Shown: positions 1 to 16,076 of the stretch, piece by piece
Numbering within the stretch: position 1 is the stretch's first letter
How the letters are laid out: each line of letters starts with the position of its first letter
NCBI GenBank assembly: GCA_965230995.1
Contig: OZ246398.1
Location: 592,213 to 656,212 of the forward strand
DNA from: an uncultured Candidatus Saccharibacteria bacterium
GTDB taxonomy: Bacteria > Patescibacteriota > Minisyncoccia > Phycocordibacterales > G965230995
Direction: 5' to 3'
Length of the DNA: 64,000 bases
Notes under the pieces: model-generated
Seen by the model: only the letters and a program-made list of their open reading frames with translations
Database searches by the model: none
Told to the model about the DNA's origin: nothing
Program-made: the position numbers and the translations under genes

Positions 1-1535
1 AGACTGATGGTGTTATAAGAAAAGAAAGCCAAATTAAACATAACGTGGATGTACACGAAAGATGTGGTACGCCTGTAGAATTTCTACCAACAACACAATG
101 GTTTGTTAAGATCCTTGATATGAAGGAAAGAATGTTAGAGGCAGGTAATAAAATAAATTGGCATCCAGAACATATGAAAAAGAGATATGAAGACTGGATA
201 AACGGTCTTAAATGGGATTGGTGTATATCAAGGGAACGTTTTTATGGAATACCAATACCAGTATTTAACTGTGATAAATGTGACCATATTATGGTTCCTA
301 GCATAGATGAGATGCCAATTGACCCCAAAAAAGAAAAAGATTTACAAGTGTGTCCGACTTGTAAAATTGGTAATATGATACCGGAAAAAAGTGTCTTAGA
401 TACATGGTTTACTTCCGCACTATCCACAGAAATTAATAATAGCCACCCTCTTAATGGAAAATTAAATGGTGAGATGTTTCCTATGTCTATGAGACCACAA
501 GCACATGACATTATTAGGACATGGGCTGTTTACTCTATTTTGATGTCTTTATATAAACATAATAATATTCCATGGGAGAATCTTATGATCTCAGGACATA
601 TATTAGTCCAAAAAGGAGAAAAAATTAGTAAAAAGACAGGTGGTGGAAAATACAAACCAGAAGATTTGATTAATCAAAAATCGGCTGATGCAATAAGGTA
701 TGCTATGTCAGGATCTTCTCTCGGGAAAGACACATATTTTGATGAAAAAGAAGTAGAAAAAGGCAAGAAATTAGTAACAAAACTTTACAATGCAGGTAAA
801 TTGATCCTAATCAAATTAAAAGGTTTCGACTCTAAAATAGAATTAAGAAATACCAATCTAGAAGCAATTGACCAGTGGATATTAAACAGATCGGTTGAGA
901 CTGCCCAAAAAATGGCAGTTGCCCTTGAGAAATATGAATATTCTCAAGCCCGTCAAATATTTGAGGATTTTTTCTGGAGAGAGTTTTGTGATAATTATTT
1001 AGAGATAGTAAAGAAGAGATTATCTATTGAATCAGTAGATGATAAATTAAAGATTTCAGCTCAATACGCATGCTACCATAGTTTCCTCAATATTCTAAAA
1101 ATGGCATCTCCTTTTATTCCTCACATAACAGAGGAGATGTTCCATGCAGATATTGTAACCAAAAAAGAAGGTGATAATACCGTAGAATCGGTCAATTCAA
1201 ATAGTAGTTCTGGTTATTTTAGCACATACGAAGGTATAAAAAGTATTCATAATACTTTATGGCCTTCTGTTAAAATAGAATATACTAATGATAAAAATGG
1301 AGAGAACGCAGATTTTGTCTTATCTGTTATCTCCGAAATAAGAAAATATAAGACTGATAATAAAATAAAATTAGGTACACCTGTCTCTGTTCTAAAAATA
1401 AGATGTTCAGAATTACAGAAAACGATGCTAAACGATTTTTTGAATGACATTGCTTCGTTATCTAGAGCAGAAAAAATTGAAATTGAAGTTGATAATTCAG
1501 ATAGTAATCAAATAGGTATTGAAATTACTTTATAG
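1..1535 (+). CDS. valS: Class I aminoacyl-tRNA synthetase, C-terminal portion. Most likely valyl-tRNA synthetase, 5'-truncated by the window edge.
   Basis: The frame is open from nt 3 with no upstream stop. Motifs seen: WDWCISRERFYGIPIP, LDTWFTSAL, and a KMSKS-like 'KISKKTG'. These fit ValRS better than IleRS or LeuRS. Confidence 0.7.
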   Translation, partial: TDGVIRKESQIKHNVDVHERCGTPVEFLPTTQWFVKILDMKERMLEAGNKINWHPEHMKKRYEDWINGLKWDWCISRERFYGIPIPVFNCDKCDHIMVPSIDEMPIDPKKEKDLQVCPTCKIGNMIPEKSVLDTWFTSALSTEINNSHPLNGKLNGEMFPMSMRPQAHDIIRTWAVYSILMSLYKHNNIPWENLMISGHILVQKGEKISKKTGGGKYKPEDLINQKSADAIRYAMSGSSLGKDTYFDEKEVEKGKKLVTKLYNAGKLILIKLKGFDSKIELRNTNLEAIDQWILNRSVETAQKMAVALEKYEYSQARQIFEDFFWREFCDNYLEIVKKRLSIESVDDKLKISAQYACYHSFLNILKMASPFIPHITEEMFHADIVTKKEGDNTVESVNSNSSSGYFSTYEGIKSIHNTLWPSVKIEYTNDKNGENADFVLSVISEIRKYKTDNKIKLGTPVSVLKIRCSELQKTMLNDFLNDIASLSRAEKIEIEVDNSDSNQIGIEITL

Positions 1536-1555
1536 CCTTAAATCATCAAAAATCA

Positions 1556-1585
1556 TTGACAAAATGATATTTTTCGTGCTATAAT
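1556..1585 (+). promoter_or_regulatory. Sigma70-like promoter: TTGACA, 18-nt spacer, TATAAT.
   Basis: Near-consensus -35 (1556-1561) and -10 (1580-1585). A GGAGGTG SD lies at 1620-1626, 5 nt before the ATG at 1632. Confidence 0.6.
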
Positions 1586-1631
1586 ATAAAAGGAAACTAA
1601 ACAGAGCAAGCAAACCTACGGAGGTGGTCAA

Positions 1632-2207
1632 ATGGACCTGACAATTTTGCTTGGTGTAATTGTGGGTGTTGTACACCTTGCTGGGTACTGGTTCTACCAC
1701 AAAGCTCAAAGGAAATCAGGAATCAAACCTGACCAATCGAGCTGGCTGATGTGGGCGGGAGGGAGTATTCTCAATCTGATCTCGTACTCAAAGATGAGTG
1801 GGGATTGGGTGAAGGACATTCTTCCTGCTGTCTGTGCCTTTGCGTGTATCATTTTGTTTGCTGAGCAGTGCTATCTGTTTGGCTTCAAAAAGATACCGCT
1901 CAAGGACATTCCGAGCTTCCTATGTGACCTAGGTGCAACTATGGTCTGGTACATTGCAGGTTCACCGCTCGTCGGTAACATTGCTTATCAGATTGCTACG
2001 GTTGCAACATTTGTACCTATCATTAGGGAGACAAGACGTGAGCCGATGTGCGAGGATCGATTGCCATGGATGACATGGTCAATCGCCTACGGTCTTGATG
2101 TGGTTCTGGTCATAACACGATGGAATCAGTGGGGTGATGTCGTTTATCCGCTGGTCTGTCTCGTGTTGCATATTCTAATGGCTGTCTCTGCAAAAAAAAA
2201 GCAGTAA
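1632..2207 (+). CDS. Polytopic membrane protein of unknown function, in a GC-rich stand-alone cassette.
   Basis: About six hydrophobic segments. Strong SD. GC-richer than its neighbours. Own promoter and terminator. Confidence 0.6.
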   Translation: MDLTILLGVIVGVVHLAGYWFYHKAQRKSGIKPDQSSWLMWAGGSILNLISYSKMSGDWVKDILPAVCAFACIILFAEQCYLFGFKKIPLKDIPSFLCDLGATMVWYIAGSPLVGNIAYQIATVATFVPIIRETRREPMCEDRLPWMTWSIAYGLDVVLVITRWNQWGDVVYPLVCLVLHILMAVSAKKKQ

Positions 2208-2218
2208 CAGAGTTGATG

Positions 2219-2260
2219 CCGGCACGCCCTTGAGAAAGGTGTGCCGTTGTTGTTTTTTTC
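2219..2260 (+). terminator. Rho-independent terminator.
   Basis: ggcacgcc...ggtgtgcc stem followed by a T7 run. Confidence 0.55.
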
Positions 2261-2294
2261 ATCATATCGTTTATAATTTATATACATAACTATC

Positions 2295-2813
2295 ATGCCT
2301 GAAAATTCAGAAAAAGAAACACATATTTATTCAGCTAAAAGTAATATAGCTGGAAAGGGATTATTTACTTCAAAATTTATTAAAAAAAATGAACTTGCTT
2401 TTGTTATGCAAGGACCAATTATTAATTACCACCCAATAAACAAAGAGGAGGCTTGCCAATTACCAAACATTGTTGGTATTGAGAAGGATAAATATATTGA
2501 CCCAATTGAACCGTATGTTTACATTAATCACTCTTGTGAACCAAACCTTGCATATATCGTTGTAGATAAAAAACCACATTTTTATGCTCTTAGAGATATA
2601 GATTTAGGAGAAGAACTTACCTTTGATTACTCTATTTCAGAATATTCAGATTGGGAAATGACATGTAGTTGTGGATCAAAAAAGTGTAGGAAGGTTATTA
2701 AATCTGTAGAAAAGCTTCCTGTCGATTTTTTTGAACAATATTTTCCTTTTATTCCAGAATTTTTTCAAAAGGTCTTTTTTAATAACTATATAAACGCAAA
2801 AGATGAAAAATAA
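2295..2813 (+). CDS. SET-domain protein (putative protein lysine methyltransferase).
   Basis: NHSCEPN and ELTFDY motifs, plus a post-SET CxCGSKKCRK. Confidence 0.75.
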   Translation: MPENSEKETHIYSAKSNIAGKGLFTSKFIKKNELAFVMQGPIINYHPINKEEACQLPNIVGIEKDKYIDPIEPYVYINHSCEPNLAYIVVDKKPHFYALRDIDLGEELTFDYSISEYSDWEMTCSCGSKKCRKVIKSVEKLPVDFFEQYFPFIPEFFQKVFFNNYINAKDEK

Positions 2814-3138
2814 CAAGTGGTTAAAATATACAATCGTCCTCGCGATATTTTTATTGGTATTTTGTCTTTCTTATTATTATCTTTCTCTCAAGAAAGATTT
2901 TTTTGTAATAATGAACGTCCCATGTGAGCAAGGTGATCCAGACGGTAATTGTTTTGTAAATGAAGATGATAACGGAGAAATTTTTCATTATAAGTTATTA
3001 AAAATAAAAGCAAGTGACATGCCAACATGCTCAGGATCTGAATGTGAATTTCCAAAGTGTGATAATGAGACTGCTGACTGTAGTTATGAATATTGTGAAG
3101 CTGGTAATGAGGATGGCTATATTTGCCTAGAAAAATAA
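2803..3138 (+). CDS. Small Cys-rich protein with an N-terminal TM or signal anchor.
   Basis: N-terminal hydrophobic helix followed by about ten Cys in an acidic domain. Sits between two SET genes. Confidence 0.45.
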   Translation: MKNNKWLKYTIVLAIFLLVFCLSYYYLSLKKDFFVIMNVPCEQGDPDGNCFVNEDDNGEIFHYKLLKIKASDMPTCSGSECEFPKCDNETADCSYEYCEAGNEDGYICLEK

Positions 3139-3139
3139 T

Positions 3140-3607
3140 ATGAAAAAGATTTTTTCTTCAAAAAGTAGCATAGATAAAAGCGGAATTTTTGCTGGAGAAA
3201 ATTTTAAAAAAGGGGAATTTGTAGTAAAATTAACTGGAAAATATATTAAATGGAAGTATAATGAAAAGACAGACAGACAAAAATGCGCTAACTGGTTCGG
3301 AATAAAAAAAGACCATTGGATTGATCCAGACTTTCCATTGTCACAGATTAATCATTCATGTGATCCGAACATCGGAATTAAAGGTAGAATTATGTTCTAT
3401 GCTTTGCGCGATATAGGAAAAGGAGAAGAACTAACTTTTGACTATTCTACAGCTGAGGAGGAATCGGATTGGCAGATGAAGTGTAAATGTAAGTCAAAAA
3501 AATGTAGGAAGTTTGTTACCTCAATAATGTTTCTGCCTGATAAGGTTTTTAGATCATATTTACCATTTATACCAACATATTTTAAAAAATTGTATTTTAA
3601 AAAGTAA
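3140..3607 (+). CDS. SET-domain protein, paralog of 2295-2813.
   Basis: NHSCDPN and ELTFDY motifs, plus CKCKSKKCRK. Confidence 0.75.
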   Translation: MKKIFSSKSSIDKSGIFAGENFKKGEFVVKLTGKYIKWKYNEKTDRQKCANWFGIKKDHWIDPDFPLSQINHSCDPNIGIKGRIMFYALRDIGKGEELTFDYSTAEEESDWQMKCKCKSKKCRKFVTSIMFLPDKVFRSYLPFIPTYFKKLYFKK

Positions 3608-3616
3608 ATAACAAAA

Positions 3617-5281
3617 ATGTTTGATTACCTTTCGTGCAATTGGGACAAAGCAAAGTACATGTTTTTTTCTGATAATGTATATGATCCATTAATCTATTAC
3701 TCTCACATTCTTCCGCTTGTTGTTTCGCTCCTTCTTGCTTTTTTTGTTTTTATAAATAACAGAAAAAGTAAAATTAATTTGTCTTTTTTTGTACTAAATA
3801 TATGTTTTTCAATTTGGGTTGGTTTTGATCTAATATTGTGGTCATCAGAAAAACCCGATTTAATAATGTTCTTTTGGTCAATAATTGTTCCAATAGAGTT
3901 ACTAGTCTTTACATTTTCAGTTATATTTAGTCAGGAATTTTTTAATCTAAAATTATTCAAGAAGGTTAATAAATATCTGATTCCGATATTATTTATCCCT
4001 ATATTATTATTTACTCATACTAAATTTAACCTTGTTGCATTTGATTACACGAATTGTGACAGAGGCGCAATAGAAGGTGTGTTAATTACCTATCTTTATG
4101 CTGTAGAAATTTTAATGTTTGTTATGTTGATTATTGATTTTGTATACACATCGTTTCGTAAAAATAATTTTATCGAAAAACGTGTTCATTTTATAGCATC
4201 ATTAGGAATTCTTATATTTTTAGGAATATTTATCGTCGGTAATCTGTCTCTTTTGAGTGACATGGACTGGAGATATGAACAATATAAATTGTTTGGAATG
4301 CCTATATTTCTTGCTGTGATATCTTTTCTTATTGTAAGGTTCAAAGCCTTTAACGTTAAATTGCTTGGTGCACAAGCGCTCGTTGTTGCTCTTGTAATAT
4401 TGATTGGTTCACAATTTTTGTTCATTAGAACAAACATAAATCGTGTACTTACTTCAGTTGCTCTTGTATTTACTGGCGCAATCGGCATAAGCCTCATTCG
4501 TTCTGTTAAAAAAGAAGTAAAGGCACGTGAAGAAATTGAAAAAAGAGAAAAACAGCTGGAGATTGTTAACAAACAGCTCGAAATTGCAAACGAAGGACAA
4601 TCGAATCTTCTTCACTTCATTACTCATCAGGTCAAGGGATATTTTACAAAGAGCCGAAACGTTTTTGCTGAATTAAAAACTGGCGAATACGGAAAGCTAC
4701 CAGATCAGGCAGAGACGATGATTTTTGAAGGCTTTCGTTCTGCGACCGAAGGTGTTGACCTTGTTCAAAATGTTCTAAACGCTGCAAATATTGATAGGGG
4801 AACAATGAAATACAACAAAGAAGATGTGGATTTGAAATCTATTTTAAGGGATGTCATTAGACAAAAAGAAACTTCTGCAACAGAAAAAGGTCTTTCAATT
4901 AAAACAAATATAGGCGATGGGAATTTCAACATTCACGGTGACTCTCTTCAGCTAAAAGAAGTTATGAAGAATTTAATTGAAAACGCAATCAGATATACTC
5001 TAAAGGGTGGTTTGGAAGTTAACTTGAGCATAAACGATCATATGATTTTGTTTTATGTAAAAGACACTGGTGTTGGTGTGTCTGCAGAAGATATGCCAAA
5101 GCTATTTAAAAAAGGTGGACACGGAACTGATTCAACGAAAATCAATCCAGAAAGTACCGGATACGGTCTATATATCGTAAAAGAAATTGTCGAAAAAGCC
5201 CACGGCGGTCGCGTCTGGGTAGAATCCGAAGGAAAAGGCAAGGGTTCAACATTCTTTGTGCAATTGCCAACAGGGAAATAA
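3617..5281 (+). CDS. Sensor histidine kinase with a polytopic N-terminal membrane domain.
   Basis: About 7-8 TM segments. H-box ITHQVKG, N-box LIENAIRYT, G-boxes DTGVGV and GYGLYIVKE. Confidence 0.8.
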   Translation: MFDYLSCNWDKAKYMFFSDNVYDPLIYYSHILPLVVSLLLAFFVFINNRKSKINLSFFVLNICFSIWVGFDLILWSSEKPDLIMFFWSIIVPIELLVFTFSVIFSQEFFNLKLFKKVNKYLIPILFIPILLFTHTKFNLVAFDYTNCDRGAIEGVLITYLYAVEILMFVMLIIDFVYTSFRKNNFIEKRVHFIASLGILIFLGIFIVGNLSLLSDMDWRYEQYKLFGMPIFLAVISFLIVRFKAFNVKLLGAQALVVALVILIGSQFLFIRTNINRVLTSVALVFTGAIGISLIRSVKKEVKAREEIEKREKQLEIVNKQLEIANEGQSNLLHFITHQVKGYFTKSRNVFAELKTGEYGKLPDQAETMIFEGFRSATEGVDLVQNVLNAANIDRGTMKYNKEDVDLKSILRDVIRQKETSATEKGLSIKTNIGDGNFNIHGDSLQLKEVMKNLIENAIRYTLKGGLEVNLSINDHMILFYVKDTGVGVSAEDMPKLFKKGGHGTDSTKINPESTGYGLYIVKEIVEKAHGGRVWVESEGKGKGSTFFVQLPTGK

Positions 5282-5389
5282 AATAGTGAGGAATTTAATC
5301 TTACGTATATGCAATCATTTTTGCTACAAAATATTATTAAATATATAATATAGTAGGCAAGGCTCGTTCGGTGAAAGGAGGTGATCTAG

Positions 5390-5515
5390 ATGGGAAACAA
5401 AACTGGCAATCGCGGAACGCCAGTTCCAGGCACTGGGTCGAAATCGACTAAGAACGTCAACAAGTCGAGCGGCTCCAAACAGTCTGGTACTTCCAGCAAG
5501 TCGGTAAGGAAGTAA
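5390..5515 (+). CDS. Small basic Gly/Ser/Lys-rich peptide (41 aa), paralog of 8295-8444.
   Basis: AGGAGGTG SD 6 nt before the ATG. Peptide is MGNKTGNRGTPVPGTGSKS.... It shares N-x4-N-x-RG-x-PV-x-GTG with the second peptide while the DNA diverges at synonymous sites. It falls below the ORF-track length cut-off. Confidence 0.5.
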   Translation: MGNKTGNRGTPVPGTGSKSTKNVNKSSGSKQSGTSSKSVRK

Positions 5516-5521
5516 CATCCC

Positions 5522-6856
5522 TTGTCAGAGCCGACATACTCCAAGTCTAACCCTTGCTCTGGTGGCACCTTGCCACCAGTCTCTTTAATATCAAACATGA
5601 ATAACGAAGATAGACAATCTTTTAGTCAGACAAAACTAGAGAACGGTATCTCTATCTATTCTCATAGAATGGACATGCCGTTTTTTGAGTTGAGAATTAT
5701 AATCCAAGTTGGTAATGTTCATTCACATTCTAAAAATAAATATGGAGAAAATGGTATTGTACATCTGCTCGAACATTTGGTATTTAATAAATCTAAAAAA
5801 TATCCAGAAAAACACTCGTTTGAAAAAAAATTAGCTCAATATGCGGGCACCTTTAATGCAACTACATATGCTTGGCAAACAGAATTTATAATATACGGAC
5901 CAACAATTTATTTTAACGAACTTGTAGGTGGAGTAATAGACCATATTTTTTTTCCTGTGTTTGACAACGATGATATTCGTCACGAGTCAAAAATAATTTC
6001 AAATGAAAGGAATGAGAGAAAATATTATCCAGGACAAAATAGCATGTCTAAGTATATGTTTACGGAATGGATTAATGACGAATCATACAGCAAAAATCAA
6101 TTATTTGGTTCTGACGAGAATCTCTCTGAAATTGATTCAAGGCAATTATCATCATTTCACAATGAACACTATCTCCAAGATAATACAGAGATAATAATTG
6201 GTGGAAATTTTAATATAGATTTTTTAATTAATCAGCTTCAAAATATTGGAACAAAAAAATCTAATCTTGTAGCAAATTGCAGTCCGACAAAATGGAAGAA
6301 AAAAGAATTTCATACTCATACAGATAAGGATACTGACATGCCACTTTGGGTTATTGGTGGAATTATTGAAAAAAGTAGTCCAAGTGAAAGAGTTTGTTTT
6401 GATGTACTACATAACTATTTAACAAACGAAAAGCACGGCCCAATTTATGATTGGCTTAGAAAAGAAAAAGGTTGGATCTATGGTATGGATTTTGGTTCAA
6501 ATTTTGATGCCAAAAGATTTCTTTGGCACGCAACGATACCTTTTGCTAATCAAAATGACATAGTCATAGCAAGAAAAGATTTTGATAATAAAATTATTGA
6601 TGCAATTTGTGATCAAAACAGAATTGAGATTGAAATCAACAGGCAACTAGCAGAAAGGGTTTTCTTTTATCAGACATTGGGTAGTCGCATGGACACAGCA
6701 TCATATTCTTTGTTTGCAAATAAAAAAATTATTACTGAGTCTGAGTATGTATCTTATATCGAAAGTTGTAGATCAAAAAAAATTTTACTTGATATTTATA
6801 AAAAGTACTTATCACCAGAAGTTAGGAGTGATTTTATCACTATTTCAGAAAAATAA
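5522..6856 (+). CDS. M16-family (pitrilysin/insulinase-like) zinc peptidase.
   Basis: Inverted zinc motif HLLEHLVF (HxxEH) followed by YAGTFNATTYAWQTEF. The real start may be the internal Met near 5597. Confidence 0.75.
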   Translation: MSEPTYSKSNPCSGGTLPPVSLISNMNNEDRQSFSQTKLENGISIYSHRMDMPFFELRIIIQVGNVHSHSKNKYGENGIVHLLEHLVFNKSKKYPEKHSFEKKLAQYAGTFNATTYAWQTEFIIYGPTIYFNELVGGVIDHIFFPVFDNDDIRHESKIISNERNERKYYPGQNSMSKYMFTEWINDESYSKNQLFGSDENLSEIDSRQLSSFHNEHYLQDNTEIIIGGNFNIDFLINQLQNIGTKKSNLVANCSPTKWKKKEFHTHTDKDTDMPLWVIGGIIEKSSPSERVCFDVLHNYLTNEKHGPIYDWLRKEKGWIYGMDFGSNFDAKRFLWHATIPFANQNDIVIARKDFDNKIIDAICDQNRIEIEINRQLAERVFFYQTLGSRMDTASYSLFANKKIITESEYVSYIESCRSKKILLDIYKKYLSPEVRSDFITISEK

Positions 6857-6904
6857 TCCATGTGGATAACCGAGGGGAAATGGGTGTGGTAGAATTCCTC
6901 GGGT

Positions 6905-7768
6905 ATGGAAACAAATATTTTTGGATATTTAGCAGTACTGGCTTTCGTAATGGTAGCAAGTGGCGCATTTTTTAAAAGAAAGATCGTTAGGCTCGAAAAA
7001 GAAGTTCACAATAAAGAAAAAGAATTGGAGTTGGCTTTGGTCAGAGTGAGGGAAGTTGATCAATTAAAAGACGACATTGTTTCTCTTGCGGCACATCAAA
7101 TCAGATCACCGCTTGTCGCCATTAGAGGCTACGCTTCAATGATAGCCGAGGGTGATTTTGGAAATGTTGAAATGAATGTTCAAGACGCAATTCAGAGAAT
7201 TTCTGATTCGAGCAAGAATTTGATGAACATAGCAAATGAATTTCTCGATATTTCTCATATAGAAGAGGGGAGAATAAAATACAATCTAAAAGAATTTGAT
7301 TTAAAGCATACTCTAACTAGAATCTGCGAAAAATATGAAAAGAGGATAAAAGAAAAAGGTCTTGATTTTAGTTTTGATTATGAAAAAAATCTTGATTACA
7401 TGGTTTTTGCAGATAGAGAAAAAATAAAAAGAATAATACAAACAGTTGTTGAAAACGCCATTAGATATACTCGTGAAGGGAAAATAAAAGTCTCGCTATC
7501 CTCTGGTAATGGAAAAGCAATTGTTTCTGTCACTGACACTGGAATTGGTATTAGCAAAAAGGATAGCAATAGGATTTTCCATAGATTTGCAAGGACAAGT
7601 AATGCCAGCAGAATAGATACAACAGGAACTGGAATCGAGCTCTATATCGCAAAAGAGATGCTTCACGCTCAGGGCGGGCATATTTACGCCATATCAGAAG
7701 GTTCAAACAAGGGATCAACATTTGTGATTGAAATAAAGCTTGCAAGTAATATCGGTAGCCAAAAATAG
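6905..7768 (+). CDS. Sensor histidine kinase (single TM, coiled coil, HisKA plus HATPase_c).
   Basis: LAAHQIRSPL H-box, VENAIRYT, DTGIGI, GTGIELYIAKE. Confidence 0.8.
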   Translation: METNIFGYLAVLAFVMVASGAFFKRKIVRLEKEVHNKEKELELALVRVREVDQLKDDIVSLAAHQIRSPLVAIRGYASMIAEGDFGNVEMNVQDAIQRISDSSKNLMNIANEFLDISHIEEGRIKYNLKEFDLKHTLTRICEKYEKRIKEKGLDFSFDYEKNLDYMVFADREKIKRIIQTVVENAIRYTREGKIKVSLSSGNGKAIVSVTDTGIGISKKDSNRIFHRFARTSNASRIDTTGTGIELYIAKEMLHAQGGHIYAISEGSNKGSTFVIEIKLASNIGSQK

Positions 7769-7792
7769 AGTCTTTCTGATATAATTATCCAA

Positions 7793-8233
7793 ATGAAAAA
7801 GGACTATTCGTTTGGAATCATCCCCTTCTGTAAAAAAGAAGAGGAGGCTTTATTTTTAATTGTTAAACATTTTGCGGGTCACTGGGGTTTTCCCAAGGGC
7901 CACAGAGAAGGGAACGAGACTGATATCGAAACAGCAAAAAGGGAATTTTGTGAGGAAACTGGAATATGCGAATTTCAAATAATTTCTGAAAAACCTTTTG
8001 TTACCGAGACATATAAAACACATCATCCGGTATTAAAGGATATGGAGAAAACTGTCTGCTATTACCTAGCAGAAGTTTTTAATGAAAAAGTTTGTTTACC
8101 AGAAGAAGAAATAGTTGATGCAAAATGGTGTGGTGTGTCTATTGCAGAAGAGACTTTGACGCACGAAAGGACTAGAGAAATACTACGCGATGCACACAAA
8201 CACCTTGTTGATAGCGGTGTTATTGATTTATAA
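7793..8233 (+). CDS. NUDIX hydrolase.
   Basis: Nudix box GHWGFPKGHREGNETDIETAKREFCEETG. Confidence 0.75.
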   Translation: MKKDYSFGIIPFCKKEEEALFLIVKHFAGHWGFPKGHREGNETDIETAKREFCEETGICEFQIISEKPFVTETYKTHHPVLKDMEKTVCYYLAEVFNEKVCLPEEEIVDAKWCGVSIAEETLTHERTREILRDAHKHLVDSGVIDL

Positions 8234-8294
8234 TTTATTTGTGGTATATTAAAAAAGGAGTCGACAACAACCAACCCGGAAAGGAGGTAAGAAA

Positions 8295-8444
8295 ATGTCG
8301 AACGTAAAAAGTTCTAATGGCAGGGGTAAACCTGTCGCCGGCACGGGAAGATGTAAACCATCAACCCACGGCAAGAAAAGATACTGGCGAGACCACTGTG
8401 GCCCTTACAAGCCCAGAGCTCCCAAGCATAATCATAATGCTTGA
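8295..8444 (+). CDS. Small basic peptide (49 aa), paralog of 5390-5515.
   Basis: AAGGAGGT SD at 8281-8288. Peptide is MSNVKSSNGRGKPVAGTGRCKPSTHGKKRYWRDHCGPYKPRAPKHNHNA. GC-rich patch. Confidence 0.5.
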   Translation: MSNVKSSNGRGKPVAGTGRCKPSTHGKKRYWRDHCGPYKPRAPKHNHNA

Positions 8445-8499
8445 TATTTGTGCTTATAATGATTGAGTAAGATTTACATCATCATTTCAACATCAACCC

Positions 8500-8519
8500 G
8501 GCGCCGTTTCCACGGCGCC
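8500..8519 (+). promoter_or_regulatory. Perfect 7-bp GC hairpin (ggcgccg-N6-cggcgcc) immediately upstream of the methyltransferase start.
   Basis: Inverted repeat with no following T-run. Possible attenuator or RBS-occluding structure. Confidence 0.3.
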
Positions 8520-8529
8520 ACAACCATAT

Positions 8530-9219
8530 ATGGAGAACCAATTCGACAAATGGGAAAACGAATACAGAAATCCTGTATTCCTCACAAAAGATGAAAAGCC
8601 ACAGTCAGACACTGTAAAATTTTTTCGTTTTCTAAAGAAAAATAAAATTGATTTAAATAATAAAACATTGATGGATATTGGATCCGGTACTGGTAGAAAT
8701 GGTAATTTTTTCGCAGAAAAGGGTGTGATTGTAACCGGAATTGAATTATCGAAAACCGCTGTATCTATTGCAAACGAAAGATCAAGAAATTTTAATTTAA
8801 ACGCAAAATATATTCTCGGAAGTATTGGAGAAACTTTTCCCTTTGAAAATGACAAATTTGATATTGCGCTGGATGTAATGTCTTCTAATTCGCTTTCAGA
8901 ACAAGAAAGAGAAATTTTTGTAAAGGAACTCCTCCGTGTTTTAAAAAAAGATGCTTTTGTATATATAAAAGCACACTCTAAGGATGGAGATAAAAATGCC
9001 AAAGAATTATTAAAGAAATTTCCAGGCAAAGAAAAAGACACCTACACAATGCCTCAGACTGGAATCACAGAAAGAGTTTTTACTGAAAAAGATTTTATAG
9101 ATACATACACAAAAGGATTCAAAATTTTAAAATTGGATAAAAAATCAAACTATTTTGGAATAGGAGATAGAAAATATAAAAGAAACTATTTTGTTTGCTA
9201 TATGCAAAAGATTGGCTAA
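8530..9219 (+). CDS. Class I SAM-dependent methyltransferase.
   Basis: Motif I LMDIGSGTGRNG and a Rossmann-type MTase layout. Confidence 0.7.
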   Translation: MENQFDKWENEYRNPVFLTKDEKPQSDTVKFFRFLKKNKIDLNNKTLMDIGSGTGRNGNFFAEKGVIVTGIELSKTAVSIANERSRNFNLNAKYILGSIGETFPFENDKFDIALDVMSSNSLSEQEREIFVKELLRVLKKDAFVYIKAHSKDGDKNAKELLKKFPGKEKDTYTMPQTGITERVFTEKDFIDTYTKGFKILKLDKKSNYFGIGDRKYKRNYFVCYMQKIG

Positions 9220-9260
9220 TTTCTATGGAAAGACAAAAATAAACCTGCTATTATATAAAT

Positions 9261-10787
9261 ATGAACGAAAAACCAATGCAGGATTTAGACGAAAGAGATG
9301 TACGTGAAAAAGAGGCCGTTGCCCTAAAGAAAGCGGGCAAAATTATCTACAAAGACCGTTTTGATAGAACACACACCTCGCTTCAGGTGGCAAATGATTT
9401 TACCGCAGACAAAACACGCGCTTTTGATGATATTGCAAATGAACCAAAAAAACTTGTTTCTGTATCAGGAAGGGTAATGTCAGTCCGAAGTCATGGAAAA
9501 ATTTCATTTCTAAACATTCAGGATGCCGAAGGACAAGTCCAGATTGCTCTCAAGCAGGATATTCTAGGTGATGAACAATACAAAGAATACACAGAAGGCA
9601 TTCGTGTTGCTGATTTTATTGGTGTGTCTGGTGAACCATTTTTTACAAAACAAAACAAGCTCGCAATTCTTGCGATGGATGTTGTTTTGCTTTCAAAAGC
9701 ACTCCGCCCAATTCCAAAAGAACATTTTGGCATTGAAGATATAGAAACAAAATATCGCCAAAGATATCTGGATTTGATTTTGAACGAAGACACAAGAAAG
9801 AGATTTATAGTTCGTTCAAAAGTCGTTCAATCCTTGCGTCAGTGGCTACTTCAAAATAATTTTATGGAAGTCTCTACACGCTCGCTACATTCTGTGGCTG
9901 GCGGTGCTATGGCGGAAACATTTAATACTCATCATAATGCTTTAGACGAGGATTTTTCTTTGCGTATTTCACCAGAGCTAGATCTCAAAATGTGTGTAGT
10001 GGGTGGATTTGAAAGAGTTTTTGAATTTGCGATTTGCTATAGAAATGAAGGAATGGATCCATCACACGTTCAAGAATTCCAAATGCTTGAATGGTATTGT
10101 GCCTACGAGAATTATGAGGCTGGTATGAAATGGACCGAAGAAATGGTACGCAAGGCAGTACAGGACGCTCTAGGAGGCCTTGTGTTCAATGTTTTTGACA
10201 AGGATGGTGTGGAACACAGCATTGATTTTTCAAAGCCAATTCCAAAGGTAAAATTTGCCGACTTGCTAAAAGAGCATGCAGGAATCGATATGCTCGAAAC
10301 ATCCGATAAGGAATTGGTAAAAAAGGCAGTTTCTCTGGGGATAGACAAAAAAGAAGCCGAGGGACGTTCACGTGGAAACTTGCTTGATGATATTTATAAA
10401 AAGACTGCAAGACCAAAACTAATTCAGCCAGTTTTTGTGACGCATTATCCGGTAGAAATTGTGCCTCTTGCAAGACCGAGCGACGAGGATAGTAGAATTG
10501 CCGAAAGCTATCAGCTACTTATTGGAGGTTGGGAAGTTGTCAAAGCATATTCAGAATTGGTTGATCCTATAATTCAGAGAGAAAAATTTATGGAACAAGC
10601 CAAAGCCAAAGCTGGGGGTGATAAAGAAGCAATGGAATTAAACGAAGAATTTCTCACTGCAATGGAACATGGCATGCCACCTATTACTGGTTGGGGTATG
10701 GGAATTGAAAGATTTGTGACTCTGATCACGGGTCAAAAAAACCTTCGCGACGTTGTGCTATTTCCAACAATGAAGCCGGAGAAATAA
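9261..10787 (+). CDS. lysS: Lysyl-tRNA synthetase (class II).
   Basis: N-terminal OB anticodon domain. Class II motifs FEFAICYRNEG and GMGIERFV. Confidence 0.9.
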   Translation: MNEKPMQDLDERDVREKEAVALKKAGKIIYKDRFDRTHTSLQVANDFTADKTRAFDDIANEPKKLVSVSGRVMSVRSHGKISFLNIQDAEGQVQIALKQDILGDEQYKEYTEGIRVADFIGVSGEPFFTKQNKLAILAMDVVLLSKALRPIPKEHFGIEDIETKYRQRYLDLILNEDTRKRFIVRSKVVQSLRQWLLQNNFMEVSTRSLHSVAGGAMAETFNTHHNALDEDFSLRISPELDLKMCVVGGFERVFEFAICYRNEGMDPSHVQEFQMLEWYCAYENYEAGMKWTEEMVRKAVQDALGGLVFNVFDKDGVEHSIDFSKPIPKVKFADLLKEHAGIDMLETSDKELVKKAVSLGIDKKEAEGRSRGNLLDDIYKKTARPKLIQPVFVTHYPVEIVPLARPSDEDSRIAESYQLLIGGWEVVKAYSELVDPIIQREKFMEQAKAKAGGDKEAMELNEEFLTAMEHGMPPITGWGMGIERFVTLITGQKNLRDVVLFPTMKPEK

Positions 10788-10859
10788 ATATTTTAGGTAA
10801 TGTTTAACCCCGCTCCAGCAACCTGGCGGGCGGGGTCTAGGTTCGTGTTGAACCGGGAA

Positions 10860-11105
10860 TCAGTGGCGGAATGGGGGTTCGTTCTCCCACGTTTGCTGGC
10901 TGCGTTTGAGGTGTTCCGATTGGGCACGGAAGTAGGTCACATTGTCAGTTCCGGCATCGGACTCCTTGGTTGTGGGTTCACCCGTTTTGAGCTCTGTGGC
11001 AGCCTTGACTGCCGCCGCAACAAGCATCTGGTTGAAATCAGGGTCACCTGTGACGAGAACTGTGGTACTCATCGTGTCATCCGTGACGAGGACTGTGGTG
11101 CTCAT
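10860..11105 (-). CDS. Hypothetical small protein (81 aa) with an N-terminal tandem repeat, in a GC-rich patch.
   Basis: AAGGGGGTG SD before the start. MSTTVLVTDDT/MSTTVLVTGDP duplication. A GC-rich bidirectional hairpin follows at 10805-10835. Confidence 0.35.
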   Translation of the reverse strand: MSTTVLVTDDTMSTTVLVTGDPDFNQMLVAAAVKAATELKTGEPTTKESDAGTDNVTYFRAQSEHLKRSQQTWENEPPFRH

Positions 11106-11172
11106 AGTGCCACCCCCTTCTTTTCTTAATACAAATTAGCATAAAAATTGCACATTTGCTAGAATTAGCAAT

Positions 11173-12138
11173 ATGAAAAAATTGATATCGGGCGTCAAGC
11201 CAACAGGGAGGCCTCATATTGGAAATTATTTCGGAGCAATGCGTCAATTTGTGGAAATGCAGGACAAATTTGACTCTACTATTTTTATTGCAGACCTTCA
11301 CGCTCTCACTACTGTACAAAATAGGGAAGAAATGAGTAGTAATATTCTTGATTTGGCGACTGATTATCTTGCAATAGGTTTGGATCCAAAAAAAGTGACT
11401 TTGTTCAAACAATCAGACACTCCAGAAGTCGCCACTCTCGGTTGGATTTTTAACTGCATCACAACGATGCCGTATTTGATGAGGGCACACGCTTTCAAAG
11501 ATGCTGAAGCAAAAAACAAAGAAATAAATGTTGGTATTTTCGATTACCCGTTACTTATGGCAGCGGATATCTTGGTACACGACAGTGAAATTGTGCCAGT
11601 AGGAGAAGACCAAAAACAGCATGTGGAATATGCTCGTGACACAGCAGAAAAATTTAATCGTATTTTTGGCGAGACATTTATTTTGCCAAAGGCTCACATA
11701 CTAGAAGCAGTAAAGGTTGTACCCGGCACAGACGGTCGCAAAATGAGCAAGAGCTACAGCAACACGATTCCTCTTTTTGCTGATTTGGAAACAATAAAAA
11801 AAGCAGTGATGAGCATTCCTACAGATTCTCTCGGTGTATCTCTCCCAAAGCCAGAATACAAAAAGGATAATGTTTTCAAATTGCACGAATTATTTACAAC
11901 AGGTGATGAGTTTTCAAAGATTGAAGAAGGATACAAAAATGGTGGTTTAGGATATGGTGATTCAAAAAAGATTCTCATAAAGAATATTGATGCATTCATT
12001 GCTCCAATGAGAGAGAAAAGAGAGGGAATTGCAAAAGATAAAGATTATGTAATTTCTGTACTCGCAGATGGTGCAAAAAAAGCGCGAAAACAAGTGCAAT
12101 CTAAAATGGAGGAGGTTTATAAAAAGGTGGGCTTTTAG
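11173..12138 (+). CDS. trpS: Tryptophanyl-tRNA synthetase.
   Basis: HIGH-type GRPHIGNYFG and KMSKS; class Ic layout. Confidence 0.9.
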   Translation: MKKLISGVKPTGRPHIGNYFGAMRQFVEMQDKFDSTIFIADLHALTTVQNREEMSSNILDLATDYLAIGLDPKKVTLFKQSDTPEVATLGWIFNCITTMPYLMRAHAFKDAEAKNKEINVGIFDYPLLMAADILVHDSEIVPVGEDQKQHVEYARDTAEKFNRIFGETFILPKAHILEAVKVVPGTDGRKMSKSYSNTIPLFADLETIKKAVMSIPTDSLGVSLPKPEYKKDNVFKLHELFTTGDEFSKIEEGYKNGGLGYGDSKKILIKNIDAFIAPMREKREGIAKDKDYVISVLADGAKKARKQVQSKMEEVYKKVGF

Positions 12139-12178
12139 GTGGATTGCGTAGTATTAAAAATATCAGTAAAAATTAATC

Positions 12179-12871
12179 ATGCTATCAATTTTATTCAAGC
12201 TTCTCTTTACTATTGGGGTCTCTATATTTGTTACAATATTTCTTAATGTAAAAGGTTATTTTAGTGACATGACCACAGTAGTTCTTTCTGCTATAACTGC
12301 CATATTATTATATCTGATCCTTAATAATTCAAATGTTAACGTATTTCTCAGTAAAATTTTTCAGGTTATAAAGAACGGTGCATCGTTAATTCATAAAATT
12401 ATTATCTCTGAAATATTATTGGTAGGAATCATTTATTCATTCGTATGGTTCGATTACACAACCAAATGTGATCAATGTGTTTCAGTATCTGAGTATTTGA
12501 TGCTTGTTTTGTTTTTTGTTATTACTATATCTACACTAATTTTGTTATCGTTAGATGTATATAGGGTTGCTAAGAATAATTACGATAATAACACCTTATT
12601 ATTACTTAATAGGTCAATTATTTTGTCAGCGTTTGGTTGGACAATTACACTGCTTGCTAGTCTTCTAATTTTTTCTTCAACTAGCGAAAGTACTCTGCCT
12701 CTATTTTGTTTTAGTATATCAGGAATTGTCTCGTTGCTAATGAATAGCATAATGCTATTTATAAAATCCAGATTTTTTCATTGTTTTTTAAGCGTCTTAA
12801 TTTTAATTATTTTTACAGGAATAACATTTTCGATTTCCTTTCTTGCAAACATTAGTTCATTTGTATTATAA
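12179..12871 (+). CDS. Polytopic membrane protein of unknown function.
   Basis: About six hydrophobic helices. AT-rich native composition. Confidence 0.5.
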   Translation: MLSILFKLLFTIGVSIFVTIFLNVKGYFSDMTTVVLSAITAILLYLILNNSNVNVFLSKIFQVIKNGASLIHKIIISEILLVGIIYSFVWFDYTTKCDQCVSVSEYLMLVLFFVITISTLILLSLDVYRVAKNNYDNNTLLLLNRSIILSAFGWTITLLASLLIFSSTSESTLPLFCFSISGIVSLLMNSIMLFIKSRFFHCFLSVLILIIFTGITFSISFLANISSFVL

Positions 12872-12899
12872 ATATATAGTCCGAATCTTGAGATTTATA

Positions 12900-13266
12900 A
12901 TAATAAAAGAGTTTGCTTTCGGACTGTGTTAGTGGTATTTTATATACAAAGCAATGAAGCTGAAAACACAGCTGAGCTGAGGGAAGAACCGATACTACTG
13001 TCCGCCCAAGGCGGATTACGAAGTATCGTAATAGACCCCTACGGTAGCGCCCGTCACGCGCATTGGTTCGCCGTAACAGTGATCTGTGTAGGTGACCATT
13101 GGTTCGCCGAAGCATTGCGAAGGCGACCCTGATAAGCTTTGACCGCCTGCGTTATTAAACTTTGGCGAGTCGAGGGAAGCAAGGTGGCACCGCGTCGTAA
13201 AGAACGCCCTTGCACGGAAGCGATTATTCGTTTTTGTGCAAGGGTGTTTTTATTTTATCCTCACAA
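12900..13266 (+). promoter_or_regulatory. T-box riboswitch leader controlling aspS.
   Basis: T-box consensus AAGGUGGCACCGCG at 13181-13194 (UGGC implies a discriminator G). It overlaps an antiterminator/terminator pair, cccttgcac...gtgcaaggg plus U-run, at 13207-13266. The GC-rich structured upstream region contains a GAC triplet in a candidate specifier loop. Confidence 0.7.
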
Positions 13267-13298
13267 AAATTCGCTCCATTATCAGTAATTATAAGAAC

Positions 13299-14699
13299 AT
13301 GCAAAGAACATATATTGGTTCCCTCGGGGAACAAAAAGGACAGGAAGTCACCATCAAGGGATGGGTAGATGTCCGTCGCGATCAAGGAAAATTAATTTTC
13401 TTTGATTTTCGTGATATGACCGGATATGTGCAGGGTGTTGTTTTACCAAAATCTCCGGCAATGGAGAAAGCGGGAGAGCTCCGTCCTGAGTGGGTAGTAG
13501 AGATTAAAGGCAAGGTCAATCCAAGGCCTGAAAAAAATGTTCAAGCCGAAAAACAGAACGGTGATATTGAACTTGAAATATTAGATATAAATGTTTTGAA
13601 CAAATCAGAAGCATTGCCAATAGATATTTACGGCGACGGAAAAGAAATCAATGAAGAAGTCAGATTAAAATACAGGTACTTGGATATGCGACGCCCAAGA
13701 CTTCAGAGAATCTTTAGAAATAGACACAAAATTCAACAAGAGACACGTAATTTCTTTACAAAGGAAGGCTTTGTCGAGGTTGAAACTCCAATGATGACAA
13801 GATCTACTCCGGAAGGATCACGTGACTATGTTGTGCCTTCAAGACTAGAGCAGGGAAAGTTTTATGCTCTCCCACAGTCACCTCAGCAATACAAACAGCT
13901 TCTTATGGCTGGTGGTATGGAAAAATATTTTCAATTCGCGAGATGTTTTCGTGACGAAGATACAAGAGGCGACAGACAGCCAGAATTCACACAGATGGAC
14001 TTGGAAATGAGCTTTGTTGAACAAGAAGACGTGATGGCAATAAACGAAAAGGCGCTCATTCATATAGTAAAGACTCTGTATCCACACAAAAAATTCCAGG
14101 AATTACCTTTTCCAAGAATGACCTACAAGGAAGCAATGGAAAAGTATGGAAGCGACAAGCCAGATATCAGAAAAGACAAAAATGATCCAGACTTGCTCGC
14201 ATTTCTTTGGGTTGTAGATTTTCCTTTCTTTGAAAAGGATGATACTAGTCCTTCAGGTTGGACATTCACACACAACCCATTCTCAAGACCAAAGCCAGAA
14301 CATATGGATATGCTCATGAAAAAAGAAAACATTGGCGATATTTTAACCACTCAATATGACATCACATTGAACGGCTATGAGATTGGTGGGGGAAGTATTA
14401 GAAACCACGAACCAGAAGCTCTGAAAAAAGTTTTTGAAGTTATGGGCTACGAAGACACTCGTATTGAAAACAACTTTGGACATATGCTCAAAGCATTCAA
14501 AATGGGCACACCTCCACACGGTGGAATAGCGTGGGGATTTGATAGATTCCTTATGCTCCTTGAATGTGAGCCAAATATCCGCGAAGTAATTCCATTTGCC
14601 AAAACAGGCGAGGGCAAGGACCCAATGATGGAATCTCCGGCAGATATCAGAGAAGAACAACTGCTCGAATTAGGTATTACAGTTAAAAAGAAGAAATAA
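13299..14699 (+). CDS. aspS: Aspartyl-tRNA synthetase (class II, short form).
   Basis: OB domain. Motifs FQFARCFRDED, QMDLEMSF and GGGSIRNH. Start chosen downstream of the T-box terminator; the ORF-track start at 13236 overlaps the leader. Confidence 0.85.
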   Translation: MQRTYIGSLGEQKGQEVTIKGWVDVRRDQGKLIFFDFRDMTGYVQGVVLPKSPAMEKAGELRPEWVVEIKGKVNPRPEKNVQAEKQNGDIELEILDINVLNKSEALPIDIYGDGKEINEEVRLKYRYLDMRRPRLQRIFRNRHKIQQETRNFFTKEGFVEVETPMMTRSTPEGSRDYVVPSRLEQGKFYALPQSPQQYKQLLMAGGMEKYFQFARCFRDEDTRGDRQPEFTQMDLEMSFVEQEDVMAINEKALIHIVKTLYPHKKFQELPFPRMTYKEAMEKYGSDKPDIRKDKNDPDLLAFLWVVDFPFFEKDDTSPSGWTFTHNPFSRPKPEHMDMLMKKENIGDILTTQYDITLNGYEIGGGSIRNHEPEALKKVFEVMGYEDTRIENNFGHMLKAFKMGTPPHGGIAWGFDRFLMLLECEPNIREVIPFAKTGEGKDPMMESPADIREEQLLELGITVKKKK

Positions 14700-14702
14700 G
14701 GT

Positions 14703-14731
14703 AAAGGCTCCTTCGGGAGCTTTTCCTTTTA
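14703..14731 (+). terminator. Rho-independent terminator.
   Basis: aaggctcc-ttcg-ggagcttt stem plus a T-run. Confidence 0.7.
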
Positions 14732-14760
14732 TAATTCCCTTAAATTGATATTATAGATAT

Positions 14761-15522
14761 ATGCTAGTTGGCAGACCGATTTTTAGTATTAAGACAGAGA
14801 GCTTCGAGGGTCCCCTCGATCTTTTGCTTTCGCTTGTTGAAAAGAGAAAGCTTTTCATCAATGATATTTCGCTTTCAAAAGTGACGGATGATTTTATTGA
14901 ACACATAAACCAAATTACTGAAAACAATCTTGAAAATAGAGCAAATTTTATTGTCGTAGCTTCTACTCTTTTGCTTATAAAATCAAAATCTCTTTTACCA
15001 ACACTTGATTTGACTACCGAAGAACAAGGCGACATATCAGACCTGGAACTGAGATTGAAGTTGCTCTCAAAATACAAAGAAGCATCAGAATTTGTAAAAA
15101 AAATATTTGGTAAAAATATTTCTTTTGAAGGAGTGGGCGAAAGGGAACAGATAAGCGTTTTTGCCCCGCACGAATCAATTACCAAAGACAACATCTATTC
15201 GGCAATTTTGTCTGTTATCGAATCTCTTCCTAAAAAAGAAAAAGTTCCATCAATTCTTGTAAAGAAAGTTGTATCACTTGAAGAAACTATTGATATTCTG
15301 TCCAAAAGAATTGCTTCGAGCCTCAAAATGACTTTCAAAGACTTTTCATCAAAAAACCTTGGCGGTGCTGATATTGCTGAAATAAAAGTAAATGTGATTG
15401 TTAGTTTCCTCGCAATGCTAGAATTAGTAAAACAAGGCATAATTTCTGTTGAGCAGGAAAGTCGTTTTGGAGAAATCAATATGCAATCAAAGACAGTAGA
15501 GGTACCTAGATATGATATATAA
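14761..15522 (+). CDS. scpA: Segregation and condensation protein A.
   Basis: FEGPLDLLLSLVEKRKL signature. Confidence 0.85.
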   Translation: MLVGRPIFSIKTESFEGPLDLLLSLVEKRKLFINDISLSKVTDDFIEHINQITENNLENRANFIVVASTLLLIKSKSLLPTLDLTTEEQGDISDLELRLKLLSKYKEASEFVKKIFGKNISFEGVGEREQISVFAPHESITKDNIYSAILSVIESLPKKEKVPSILVKKVVSLEETIDILSKRIASSLKMTFKDFSSKNLGGADIAEIKVNVIVSFLAMLELVKQGIISVEQESRFGEINMQSKTVEVPRYDI

Positions 15523-15539
15523 AATTAAAAATTTCAAAT

Positions 15540-16076
15540 ATGAATACTGAAAATAAAATTGAAGCAATACTTTTTTACAATGGAGGGAGTATGAAGATTG
15601 CCGAGCTTTCAAAAGTTCTCGGTTTAGGTATAGATGAAATAAAATCATCACTGGAAATTCTTGAAAAAAATATTTCAGGACGTGGAATTGTTCTGGTGAG
15701 AAAAGAAGATGAAGTTATGCTTCGAACACATCCCGAAATTTCAGATTTAATTGAAAAAATTACAAAAGAAGAATTATCAAAAGATTTGGGTAGGGCAGGG
15801 CTTGAAACATTGTCTATCATTTTATACAAAAACCCAATCAGCAAAAAAGAACTAGAATATATTAGAGGTGTAAAATCATCTTTTATTTTAAGAACACTTT
15901 TGATCAGGGGATTAGTAGAGAGAATTTCTGATCCGAAAGATGCAAGGTCACATCTATACAAACCGACACTAGAATTATTTGGTTTTCTCGGAATATCAAA
16001 GATTGAAGACTTACCAGAATACGAAAATATTAAAAAGTCAATAACTGAATTCGAAACCCAAAAAGAACAGGCTTAA
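15540..16076 (+). CDS. scpB: Segregation and condensation protein B.
   Basis: IEAILFYNGGSMKIAELSKVLG winged-helix repeats; adjacent to scpA. Confidence 0.8.
   Translation: MNTENKIEAILFYNGGSMKIAELSKVLGLGIDEIKSSLEILEKNISGRGIVLVRKEDEVMLRTHPEISDLIEKITKEELSKDLGRAGLETLSIILYKNPISKKELEYIRGVKSSFILRTLLIRGLVERISDPKDARSHLYKPTLELFGFLGISKIEDLPEYENIKKSITEFETQKEQA

Follow-up and report, generated by a model that had tools for sequence, protein, structure and literature searches.

A 64,000-nucleotide stretch of DNA from an uncultured Candidatus Saccharibacteria bacterium (contig OZ246398.1, positions 592,213 to 656,212), hereafter called the window, carries near its start two genes for SET-domain proteins, SET-A and SET-B, with a third gene, CysTM, between them. 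The initial annotation had presented these three as a self-contained trio of tightly packed open reading frames (ORFs) on the + strand, and the packing was confirmed: SET-A and CysTM overlap by 11 nt, and CysTM and SET-B are separated by 1 nt. The natural unit is wider than the trio, however, as the gene upstream, MemP, and the histidine kinase gene downstream, HK7TM, which begins 9 nt after SET-B, belong with it. The five genes follow one another on the same strand in the order MemP, SET-A, CysTM, SET-B, HK7TM and, with a promoter-like site, they occupy positions 1556-5281 (Table 1). We propose, with a probability of about 0.55, that this five-gene cassette encodes a membrane-tethered methyltransferase module coupled to a sensor, in which the SET proteins are docked on MemP.

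Table 1. Coordinates, in the window, of the cassette genes and of two candidate transcription signals.
Feature	Position	Strand	Description
promoter-like site	1556-1585	+	TTGACA, 18-nt spacer, TATAAT; consensus match
MemP	1632-2207	+	191 aa; seven-helix membrane protein, no Pfam match
stem-loop + U-run	2219-2259	+	between MemP and SET-A; possible partial terminator or attenuator
SET-A	2295-2813	+	172 aa; SET + post-SET methyltransferase, MemP-adjacent type
CysTM (middle ORF)	2803-3138	+	111 aa; single-pass membrane protein, N-in/C-out
SET-B	3140-3607	+	155 aa; SET + post-SET methyltransferase, kinase-adjacent type
HK7TM	3617-5281	+	554 aa; histidine kinase, N-terminal 7TM sensor region

The two SET proteins had been described as paralogues that each carry a post-SET CxCx4C motif, with a failure to reach the thresholds of hidden Markov models (HMM) named as what would speak against the assignment. 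Both pass the Pfam model PF00856 (54.4 bits for SET-A and 58.1 bits for SET-B, with a gathering cut-off of 22.4), they are 46% identical to each other across 153 aa (E 6e-37), and NHSC, EELTFDY and the post-SET CxCx4C zinc site are present in each. Across 50 SET homologues, residues N71, H72, S73, C74, D101, Y102, C115, C117 and C122 are invariant; in the N-terminal GxG motif of SET-B, K replaces the first Gly. The best sequence match of the SETs in the PDB is MLL/KMT2 (E 6e-24). An AlphaFold (AF2) model of SET-B was obtained with a mean confidence (pLDDT) of 93, and its SET fold was confirmed by 354 PDB matches at E ≤ 0.001, the best Foldseek matches being MLL1/3/4, ASH1L and NSD, while BurB, a bacterial SET enzyme discussed below, gave a TM-score of 0.67. 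By every feature examined SET-A and SET-B are ordinary members of the SET family. From their sequences, neither carries an N-terminal signal sequence, and type III or IV secretion signals are of a kind that computation cannot rule out. SET-B has about 45 close homologues in the candidate phyla radiation (CPR), and bacterial SET proteins in general are not as uncommon as initially stated, since a single degenerate pattern yielded at least 568 confirmed stretches among the GTDB species representatives. In a rough neighbour-joining tree, SET-A groups with single SETs adjacent to MemP and with the SET part of the fusion protein P0176 (see below); SET-B branches apart, in a clade whose sister group consists of the kinase-adjacent SETs from loci L023 and L025, which lack MemP.

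Conservation of the gene order was assessed by scanning an alignment of this SET subfamily against one genome per GTDB species. Eighty loci were scored with profiles for SET, MemP, CysTM, the seven-transmembrane (7TM) region of the kinase and its catalytic half. With membership of the subfamily set at a SET score of at least 160 bits, 28 loci, each from a Patescibacteria species, were retained, and the other 52 held more distant SETs. MemP was found directly upstream of the SET gene at 23 of the 28 loci, and a 7TM kinase directly downstream, again at 23 of 28; for the more distant SETs, the same counts were 3/52 and 0/52. As a synteny control, all ORFs of 25 cassette loci were clustered. The SET and HK7TM families were each present at the 25 loci and MemP at 23, compared to only 7 for the best-conserved flanking family. 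The cassette genes are therefore conserved far beyond background synteny, which is rejected as the source of the arrangement. We conclude that MemP, SET, a small single-pass transmembrane (TM) protein and a 7TM kinase form, in that order, a recurrent unit in Patescibacteria. The positive loci come from bins labelled Paceibacterota, Nomurabacteria, Kaiserbacteria, Moraniibacteriota and 'Saccharibacteria' (labels as given), all of them Patescibacteria.

What does not recur is the SET pair flanking a peptide, which the initial annotation had taken as the unit. Most cassettes have a single SET gene. Among the close SET-B homologues examined, SET-B is always directly upstream of a histidine kinase of about 550 aa, and a MemP of about 190 aa precedes SET-A, but the slot between the two SET genes is variable: nothing separates them in the closest relatives, L002 and L004, where the genes abut or overlap, two reverse-strand genes are found there in L006, a MemP paralogue in L008, and the Cys-rich gene in the window. 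The insertion in L006 means that the junction between SET-A and SET-B tolerates insertions; it consists of a HAD hydrolase gene and of a gene whose 603-aa, repeat-rich product matches no Pfam model (L006:2497-4308, − strand). Loss of the middle ORF in relatives that keep the SET genes had been put forward as an observation that would count against the trio. Such a loss is seen for the position of the gene; it is not seen for its family, members of which recur elsewhere in the cassette. Two of the loci had other noteworthy contents. In the Taylorbacteria locus L002, an opposite-strand cluster with two ThsB_TIR-domain genes follows the cassette kinase (5578-7984) and is possibly a Thoeris-like defence island. 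An anti-phage role was considered for the cassette itself and rejected, PADLOC having returned nothing beyond a generic ATPase match. In a Moranbacteria locus, L010, MemP and SET are replaced by a membrane protein of 180 aa and a protein of 286 aa, both lacking a Pfam match (6481-7896) and encoded between a long CysTM gene and a HisKA_7TM kinase gene.

A second line of evidence comes from gene fusions. MemP and SET are encoded as one ORF in three Sphingomonadales species (L040, 418 aa; L041, 427 aa; L042, 408 aa), and they are likewise fused in P0323 and in P0176, the latter 372 aa long and 46% identical to the window MemP. In locus L172, the P0176 gene is placed between genes for a 121-aa Cys-rich TM protein and for a HisKA_7TM kinase with 46% identity to the window kinase. 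P0182 (530 aa) is a MemP-SET-SET fusion. A tandem SET-SET fusion of 311 aa was found in a bin labelled Gammaproteobacteria (L037:2249-3184); its second SET reads MRHSC and EELTDDDA, so that the catalytic Tyr is lost, which suggests a pair made of an active and an inactive SET. Taken at the level of sequence, the fusions are the strongest evidence that the SETs would act together, attached to MemP at the cytoplasmic face of the membrane.

The alphaproteobacterial MemP-SET loci have no 7TM kinase. In all four of them for which upstream sequence is available, a CHASE4 membrane sensor gene is divergent from MemP-SET, encoding a CHASE4-HisKA-HATPase protein in L031 and L032, and a CHASE4-GGDEF-EAL protein in L040 and L041. 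The constant partner of MemP-SET is thus a membrane sensor, whatever its output domain. At two of these loci, a gene for an OPT-family oligopeptide transporter is located just downstream of MemP-SET, in convergent orientation (L031:3894-5936 and L032:6450-8144, − strand).

In the window, the sensor is HK7TM. Its HATPase_c domain is recognised with 89 bits; no match to PF16927 or to HisKA was obtained at E ≤ 0.1, and a His is present in the stretch 'FITHQVKG'. HK7TM is a full-length orthologue, with 33-46% identity, of the kinases of L010 and L172, which do match HisKA_7TM and HisKA. Receiver domains were searched for by jackhmmer with a CheY seed, an approximate probe that was able to pick up regulators at L025 and L044; the 64-kb window yielded none, and L025 is the sole cassette locus with one. 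HK7TM is therefore without a cognate response regulator nearby, i.e. an orphan within the window. We also looked in the kinase for a target lysine linked to the presence of SET. All seven lysine columns that are well conserved show the same degree of conservation when no SET is encoded next to the kinase; no lysine was found to be conserved in the SET-linked kinases only, which speaks against a protein substrate.

MemP had no match in Pfam, NCBIfam or the PDB sequences, and Pfam was also empty for 29 homologues at E ≤ 1; the PQ-loop, MtN3_slv and ER_lumen_recept models are among those that neither the window MemP nor these homologues match. For the naming of MemP and CysTM alike, Pfam, NCBIfam, PADLOC and the PDB sequence libraries gave nothing meaningful. 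An exhaustive search collected 632 MemP cluster representatives at E ≤ 0.001. Using 94 representatives as the alignment, AF2 produced a model with 7 helices (pLDDT 96, predicted TM-score 0.91), whose nine best Foldseek matches in the PDB were the KDEL receptor and a eukaryotic SWEET transporter (TM-scores of 0.54-0.60, probabilities of 0.87-1.0), all others falling below 0.4. The N-terminal and C-terminal thirds of MemP are homologous to each other (hhalign probability 95%, E 2.9e-8). The modelled fold is of the SWEET/PQ-loop/KDEL receptor type, with seven helices arranged 3+1+3, a similarity at the level of the fold and not membership of a named family. Using the AF2 helix boundaries, 14 lysines and arginines were counted on the odd loops and the C-terminus against 3 on the even loops; the N-terminus is therefore predicted outside, and the C-terminus in the cytoplasm. 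Two motifs are conserved, KPNxxSWxxW and PxxExxxPWxxW. An obligate link between MemP and SET was rejected, as two distant MemP relatives stand alone, without SET, and the link is valid for the subfamily only. Two proteins, P0284 (377 aa) and P0319 (400 aa), consist of two MemP units fused in tandem; they have about 14 TM helices and match no Pfam domain.

In CysTM, the middle protein, a basic N-terminus is followed by a single hydrophobic helix and then by an acidic C-terminal region, in agreement with the N-terminal membrane anchor and Cys-rich acidic ectodomain first described. Of its 9 Cys (about ten had been announced), 1 is in the TM helix and 8 are in the ectodomain. A search with this single sequence returned only the protein itself. 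Together with a 217-aa protein of L008, however, it gave a two-sequence profile, and this profile brought in 87 CPR proteins, which are 110-200 aa long and lack Pfam domains. The idea that CysTM is an orphan was therefore rejected; against the HMM of this family CysTM scores 82 bits (E 2.8e-24). The members share a basic tail of the MDKKSK type, one TM helix, a juxtamembrane motif YYR..KKDY, a motif CDPxxExCF and an acidic domain with a series of invariant cysteines, the Cys columns being aligned. With the 121-aa protein encoded upstream of the MemP-SET fusion in L172, CysTM shares 32% identity (E 1e-8), and these two proteins are shortened versions of the long form of the family.

Shorter relatives seem to exist within the cassettes themselves. 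In 18 of the 23 species cassettes, a gap of 145-300 nt between SET and kinase encodes a single-pass ORF of 40-75 aa, with the tail, TM helix and juxtamembrane core as in CysTM and without the Cys-rich domain; in 4 of the 5 remaining cassettes, the long Cys-rich form is nearby. Metagenomes of the Joint Genome Institute (JGI) show an enrichment of the long form in the vicinity of the 7TM kinase: at 9 of 35 loci the two are within 3.5 kb (downstream), and at about 18 loci they are within 6 kb. We infer that the CysTM family is an accessory of the 7TM sensor, and that the window copy has moved between the two SET genes. The first annotation had viewed the trio as possibly a substrate/partner system: the partner sense is broadly right, as the genes form a conserved functional neighbourhood, but since the CysTM ectodomain is outside and the SETs are cytoplasmic, this ectodomain cannot be their substrate. 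In L011, two tandem 280-aa stand-alone copies of the 7TM sensor region, 44% identical to each other and without a kinase domain, are encoded downstream of a long-form CysTM gene (7925-9735).

Concerning transcription, the site upstream of MemP is the sole 12/12 promoter match in the region 1400-5600, and it has a TG before the second hexamer; overall, promoter-like sequences are as numerous as expected from shuffled sequences, and this site is known as a consensus match only. Directly after the MemP stop codon comes a stem-loop (CGGCACGCC...GGTGTGCCG) followed by a U-run, which the terminator scan had missed. The segment 2208-2270 folds with -20.9 kcal/mol (z = -3.7), a value that none of 200 shuffles equalled. 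The stem-loop is not conserved, relatives having gaps of 40-50 nt, or a fusion, at the MemP-SET junction. It may set MemP and the downstream genes at different expression levels.

The cassette is surrounded by housekeeping genes (window 1-17100), encoding ValRS, ScpA/ScpB, a NUDIX protein, a class I methyltransferase and three further tRNA synthetases (two class II tRNA-synt_2 and one class I tRNA-synt_1b). An M16 peptidase is also among the neighbours, and a second, short histidine kinase is encoded at 6905-7768. The 2-kb bin containing the trio (2001-4000) has the lowest G+C content of the window, 0.315 compared to a typical value of about 0.36.

In the mechanism that we propose, the SET enzymes would be active on the cytoplasmic side of the producing cell's membrane, where the C-terminal side of MemP would serve as their docking site, and SET-A and SET-B would probably act as a heterodimer. 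CysTM would be an accessory subunit of the membrane sensor part of the kinase, contacting it through its TM helix and juxtamembrane core and displaying its disulfide-rich acidic ectodomain outside the cell. Methylation would be an input, or a tuning step, of this membrane sensory complex. As for the methyl acceptor, we lean slightly, and tentatively, towards a small amine or thioether carried by MemP, methylated by the SETs with a chemistry of the BurB type, and monitored by the sensor. This choice is slightly favoured because the MemP fold is of a transporter type, because MemP exists without SET in distant relatives, and because the partner sensor changes between phyla while MemP-SET is constant. 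The fold of the SETs was discarded as an arbiter between a protein and a small-molecule substrate, as MLL-type enzymes and BurB score alike. The closest relatives of the SETs are protein-lysine methyltransferases, and their EELTFDY is of the lysine methyltransferase type; the preference for a small molecule is therefore weak. A more specific version, which we regard as rather unlikely, is that MemP-SET is a synthase/transporter pair, in which SET methylates a small amine or thioether at the inner mouth of a carrier resembling SWEET, the product being sensed by the neighbouring sensor, i.e. the 7TM kinase in CPR and the CHASE4 sensors in Alphaproteobacteria; the Cys-rich protein would then be an extracellular co-sensor.

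In addition to the kinship of the SETs, several observations weigh against the tethered, sensor-coupled module. Its parts are separable: the two distant MemP relatives mentioned above and most long CysTM genes have no SET partner, the long CysTM family being mostly without SET or MemP, and its link to the kinase is not obligate. The relationship of the short TM ORFs to CysTM is deduced from sequences of low identity, rich in TM residues. For MemP, the best structural matches have clear TM-scores and stand clearly apart from other hits, but their Foldseek E-values are weak (0.09-1). The evidence for co-transcription consists of the gene spacing and of one promoter-like site, and between MemP and SET-A there is a strong hairpin followed by a U-run. 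Many of the loci are from metagenome bins, whose taxon labels are possibly unreliable. Finally, no invariant lysine is present in the MemP alignment, so that the version with a protein substrate is likewise without a target there.

The protein-substrate version follows closely, as a possible if somewhat less likely alternative. It holds that the SET pair, docked on MemP, methylates cytoplasmic lysines of the sensor complex and thereby tunes signalling, the candidate targets being the kinase, the N-terminal tail of the TM accessory protein and the loops of MemP. The logic would be analogous to that of CheR acting on chemoreceptors, but with SET chemistry on lysine. Such a role would suit the proximity of the SETs to MLL/KMT2, ASH1L and NSD in sequence and fold, their complete set of canonical motifs, the EELTFDY tyrosine and post-SET zinc site included, and the tight adjacency of SET and kinase genes; the kinase being an orphan, its conserved partners in cis are moreover the SETs and the membrane proteins. 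Three observations speak against it. No lysine distinguishes SET-linked from unlinked kinases; the CHASE4 sensors of Alphaproteobacteria differ in architecture and output, which makes a common protein target hard to define; and MemP has a transporter-type fold and occurs also without SET.

It is improbable that the genes are not functionally coupled at all. The cassette would then be synteny inherited in a compact genome, the SETs ordinary cytoplasmic methyltransferases with substrates such as ribosomal or nucleoid proteins, and the middle ORF an unrelated, lineage-specific insertion. The variable content of the middle slot (empty, other genes or CysTM), the housekeeping surroundings, with some wider synteny involving the NUDIX, class I methyltransferase and tRNA-synt_1b genes, and the hairpin after MemP all fit such a view. 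It fails to account for flanks conserved at 7 of 25 loci at most, when the cassette genes reach 23 to 25, for the independent MemP-SET and MemP-SET-SET fusions, for an association with membrane sensors that recurs in a different phylum, and for CysTM homologues that recur within the cassette. Lastly, the suggestion of an episymbiont effector cassette, in which secreted or injected SETs methylate host proteins with the Cys-rich peptide as secreted partner or substrate, is very unlikely: bacterial SET effectors such as NUE and RomA/LegAS4 are known (PMC3980110), the organism is a Patescibacterium with a small genome and the Cys-rich protein is extracytoplasmic, but the SETs have no signal sequence and require cytoplasmic S-adenosylmethionine, they are on the opposite side of the membrane from the Cys-rich ectodomain, in CPR as well as in Sphingomonadales SET homologues are repeatedly fused to the cytoplasmic end of a 7TM protein, and in Sphingomonadales the same MemP-SET unit stands beside CHASE4 sensors, the cell's own sensor kinase adjoins the unit in CPR and is part of the cassette, and the middle position is empty in the closest relatives.

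The main worth of these observations lies in the MemP-SET fusions and in the link to membrane sensors across phyla. In two distant phyla, one SET subfamily is found time and again fused to, or presumably docked on, a protein of transporter fold and tied to membrane sensors, which points to a role of SET methylation at the membrane, in bacterial signalling or small-molecule handling. A context is thereby assigned to three unnamed families, MemP, CysTM with its mini-TM relatives, and the CPR 7TM kinases. Patescibacteria genomes are very small, and the genes that they retain are likely to matter. If true, the synthase/transporter version would amount to a previously unknown circuit, for a self-produced signal or for nutrient sensing, built on SET chemistry. 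The Sphingomonadales fusion offers a culturable model.

SET enzymes are usually viewed as modifiers of chromatin or, in bacteria, as effectors directed at the host or modifiers of the nucleoid. The enzymes nearest to the window SETs are MLL/KMT2, SET1, ASH1L and NSD, in sequence (E 6e-24) as in structure (TM-score of about 0.65). With MLL/KMT2-type enzymes they share GxG, NHSC, EELTFDY and the post-SET CxCx4C zinc site. They differ from them in being minimal (155-172 aa), without AWS, N-SET or reader domains, in having a conserved extra pair of C-terminal helices (LP..F..YLP.IP.YFQKVY), and in being partnered with, or fused to, a 7TM membrane protein.

A second point of comparison is BurB of Burkholderia thailandensis (PDB 9l4t and 9l4v), a 172-aa SET enzyme that S-methylates free methionine; it illustrates that a SET fold does not guarantee a lysine substrate, and that the scaffold can methylate a free small molecule (PMC12542666). 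BurB aligns with SET-B over 83 residues (E 4.8e-11) with 24% structural identity and a TM-score of 0.67, and is no closer to it than MLL is. It is, on the other hand, the only solved protein whose alignment with SET-B runs past the post-SET region and into the C-terminal extension that is typical of the subfamily. The motifs are LLHSC and LTMDY in BurB, compared to NHSC and LTFDY in the window SETs, for an identity of 24-35%. The genomic contexts differ as well: BurB is encoded in a dimethylsulfoniopropionate (DMSP)/malleicyprol cluster with BurI, BurD and BurE, whereas the neighbours of the window SETs are MemP, a TM protein and a kinase. At the window locus, no context of the BurI/BurD/BurE type was found, the neighbours being MemP, CysTM, the kinase, the M16 peptidase and tRNA synthetases.

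Chlamydia NUE and Legionella RomA/LegAS4 are secreted SET effectors that act on host histones (PMC3980110). They are, like the window SETs, bacterial SET proteins from host-associated bacteria. They are secretion substrates, however, whereas the window SETs are proposed to be tethered to the cell's own membrane and coupled to its own kinase.

On the side of the membrane proteins, MemP shares with the SWEET, PQ-loop and KDEL receptor families, and with the 3+1+3 proteins of the PnuC type, seven helices and an internal 3+1+3 duplication; it differs from the SWEET, PQ-loop and KDEL receptor families in its conserved motifs, and matches none of their Pfam models. The literature searched contains no description of a transporter-fold protein coupled to a SET enzyme, nor of a cassette made of SET, MemP, a single-pass accessory and an orphan 7TM kinase or CHASE4 sensor, and the sources searched gave no names for MemP, the CysTM/mini-TM family or the CPR 7TM kinases. 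Functional analogies are nevertheless available. The pair of PnuC and NadR couples a transporter to a modifying enzyme, in this case a cytoplasmic kinase, and MgrB and SafA are short single-pass proteins that act on the sensor kinase PhoQ. The short TM proteins encoded immediately upstream of HK7TM-type kinases have no sequence relationship to MgrB or SafA, and their contact with the kinase would be of a comparable kind; unlike MgrB and SafA, the CysTM family also has a long form, with a disulfide-rich acidic ectodomain.

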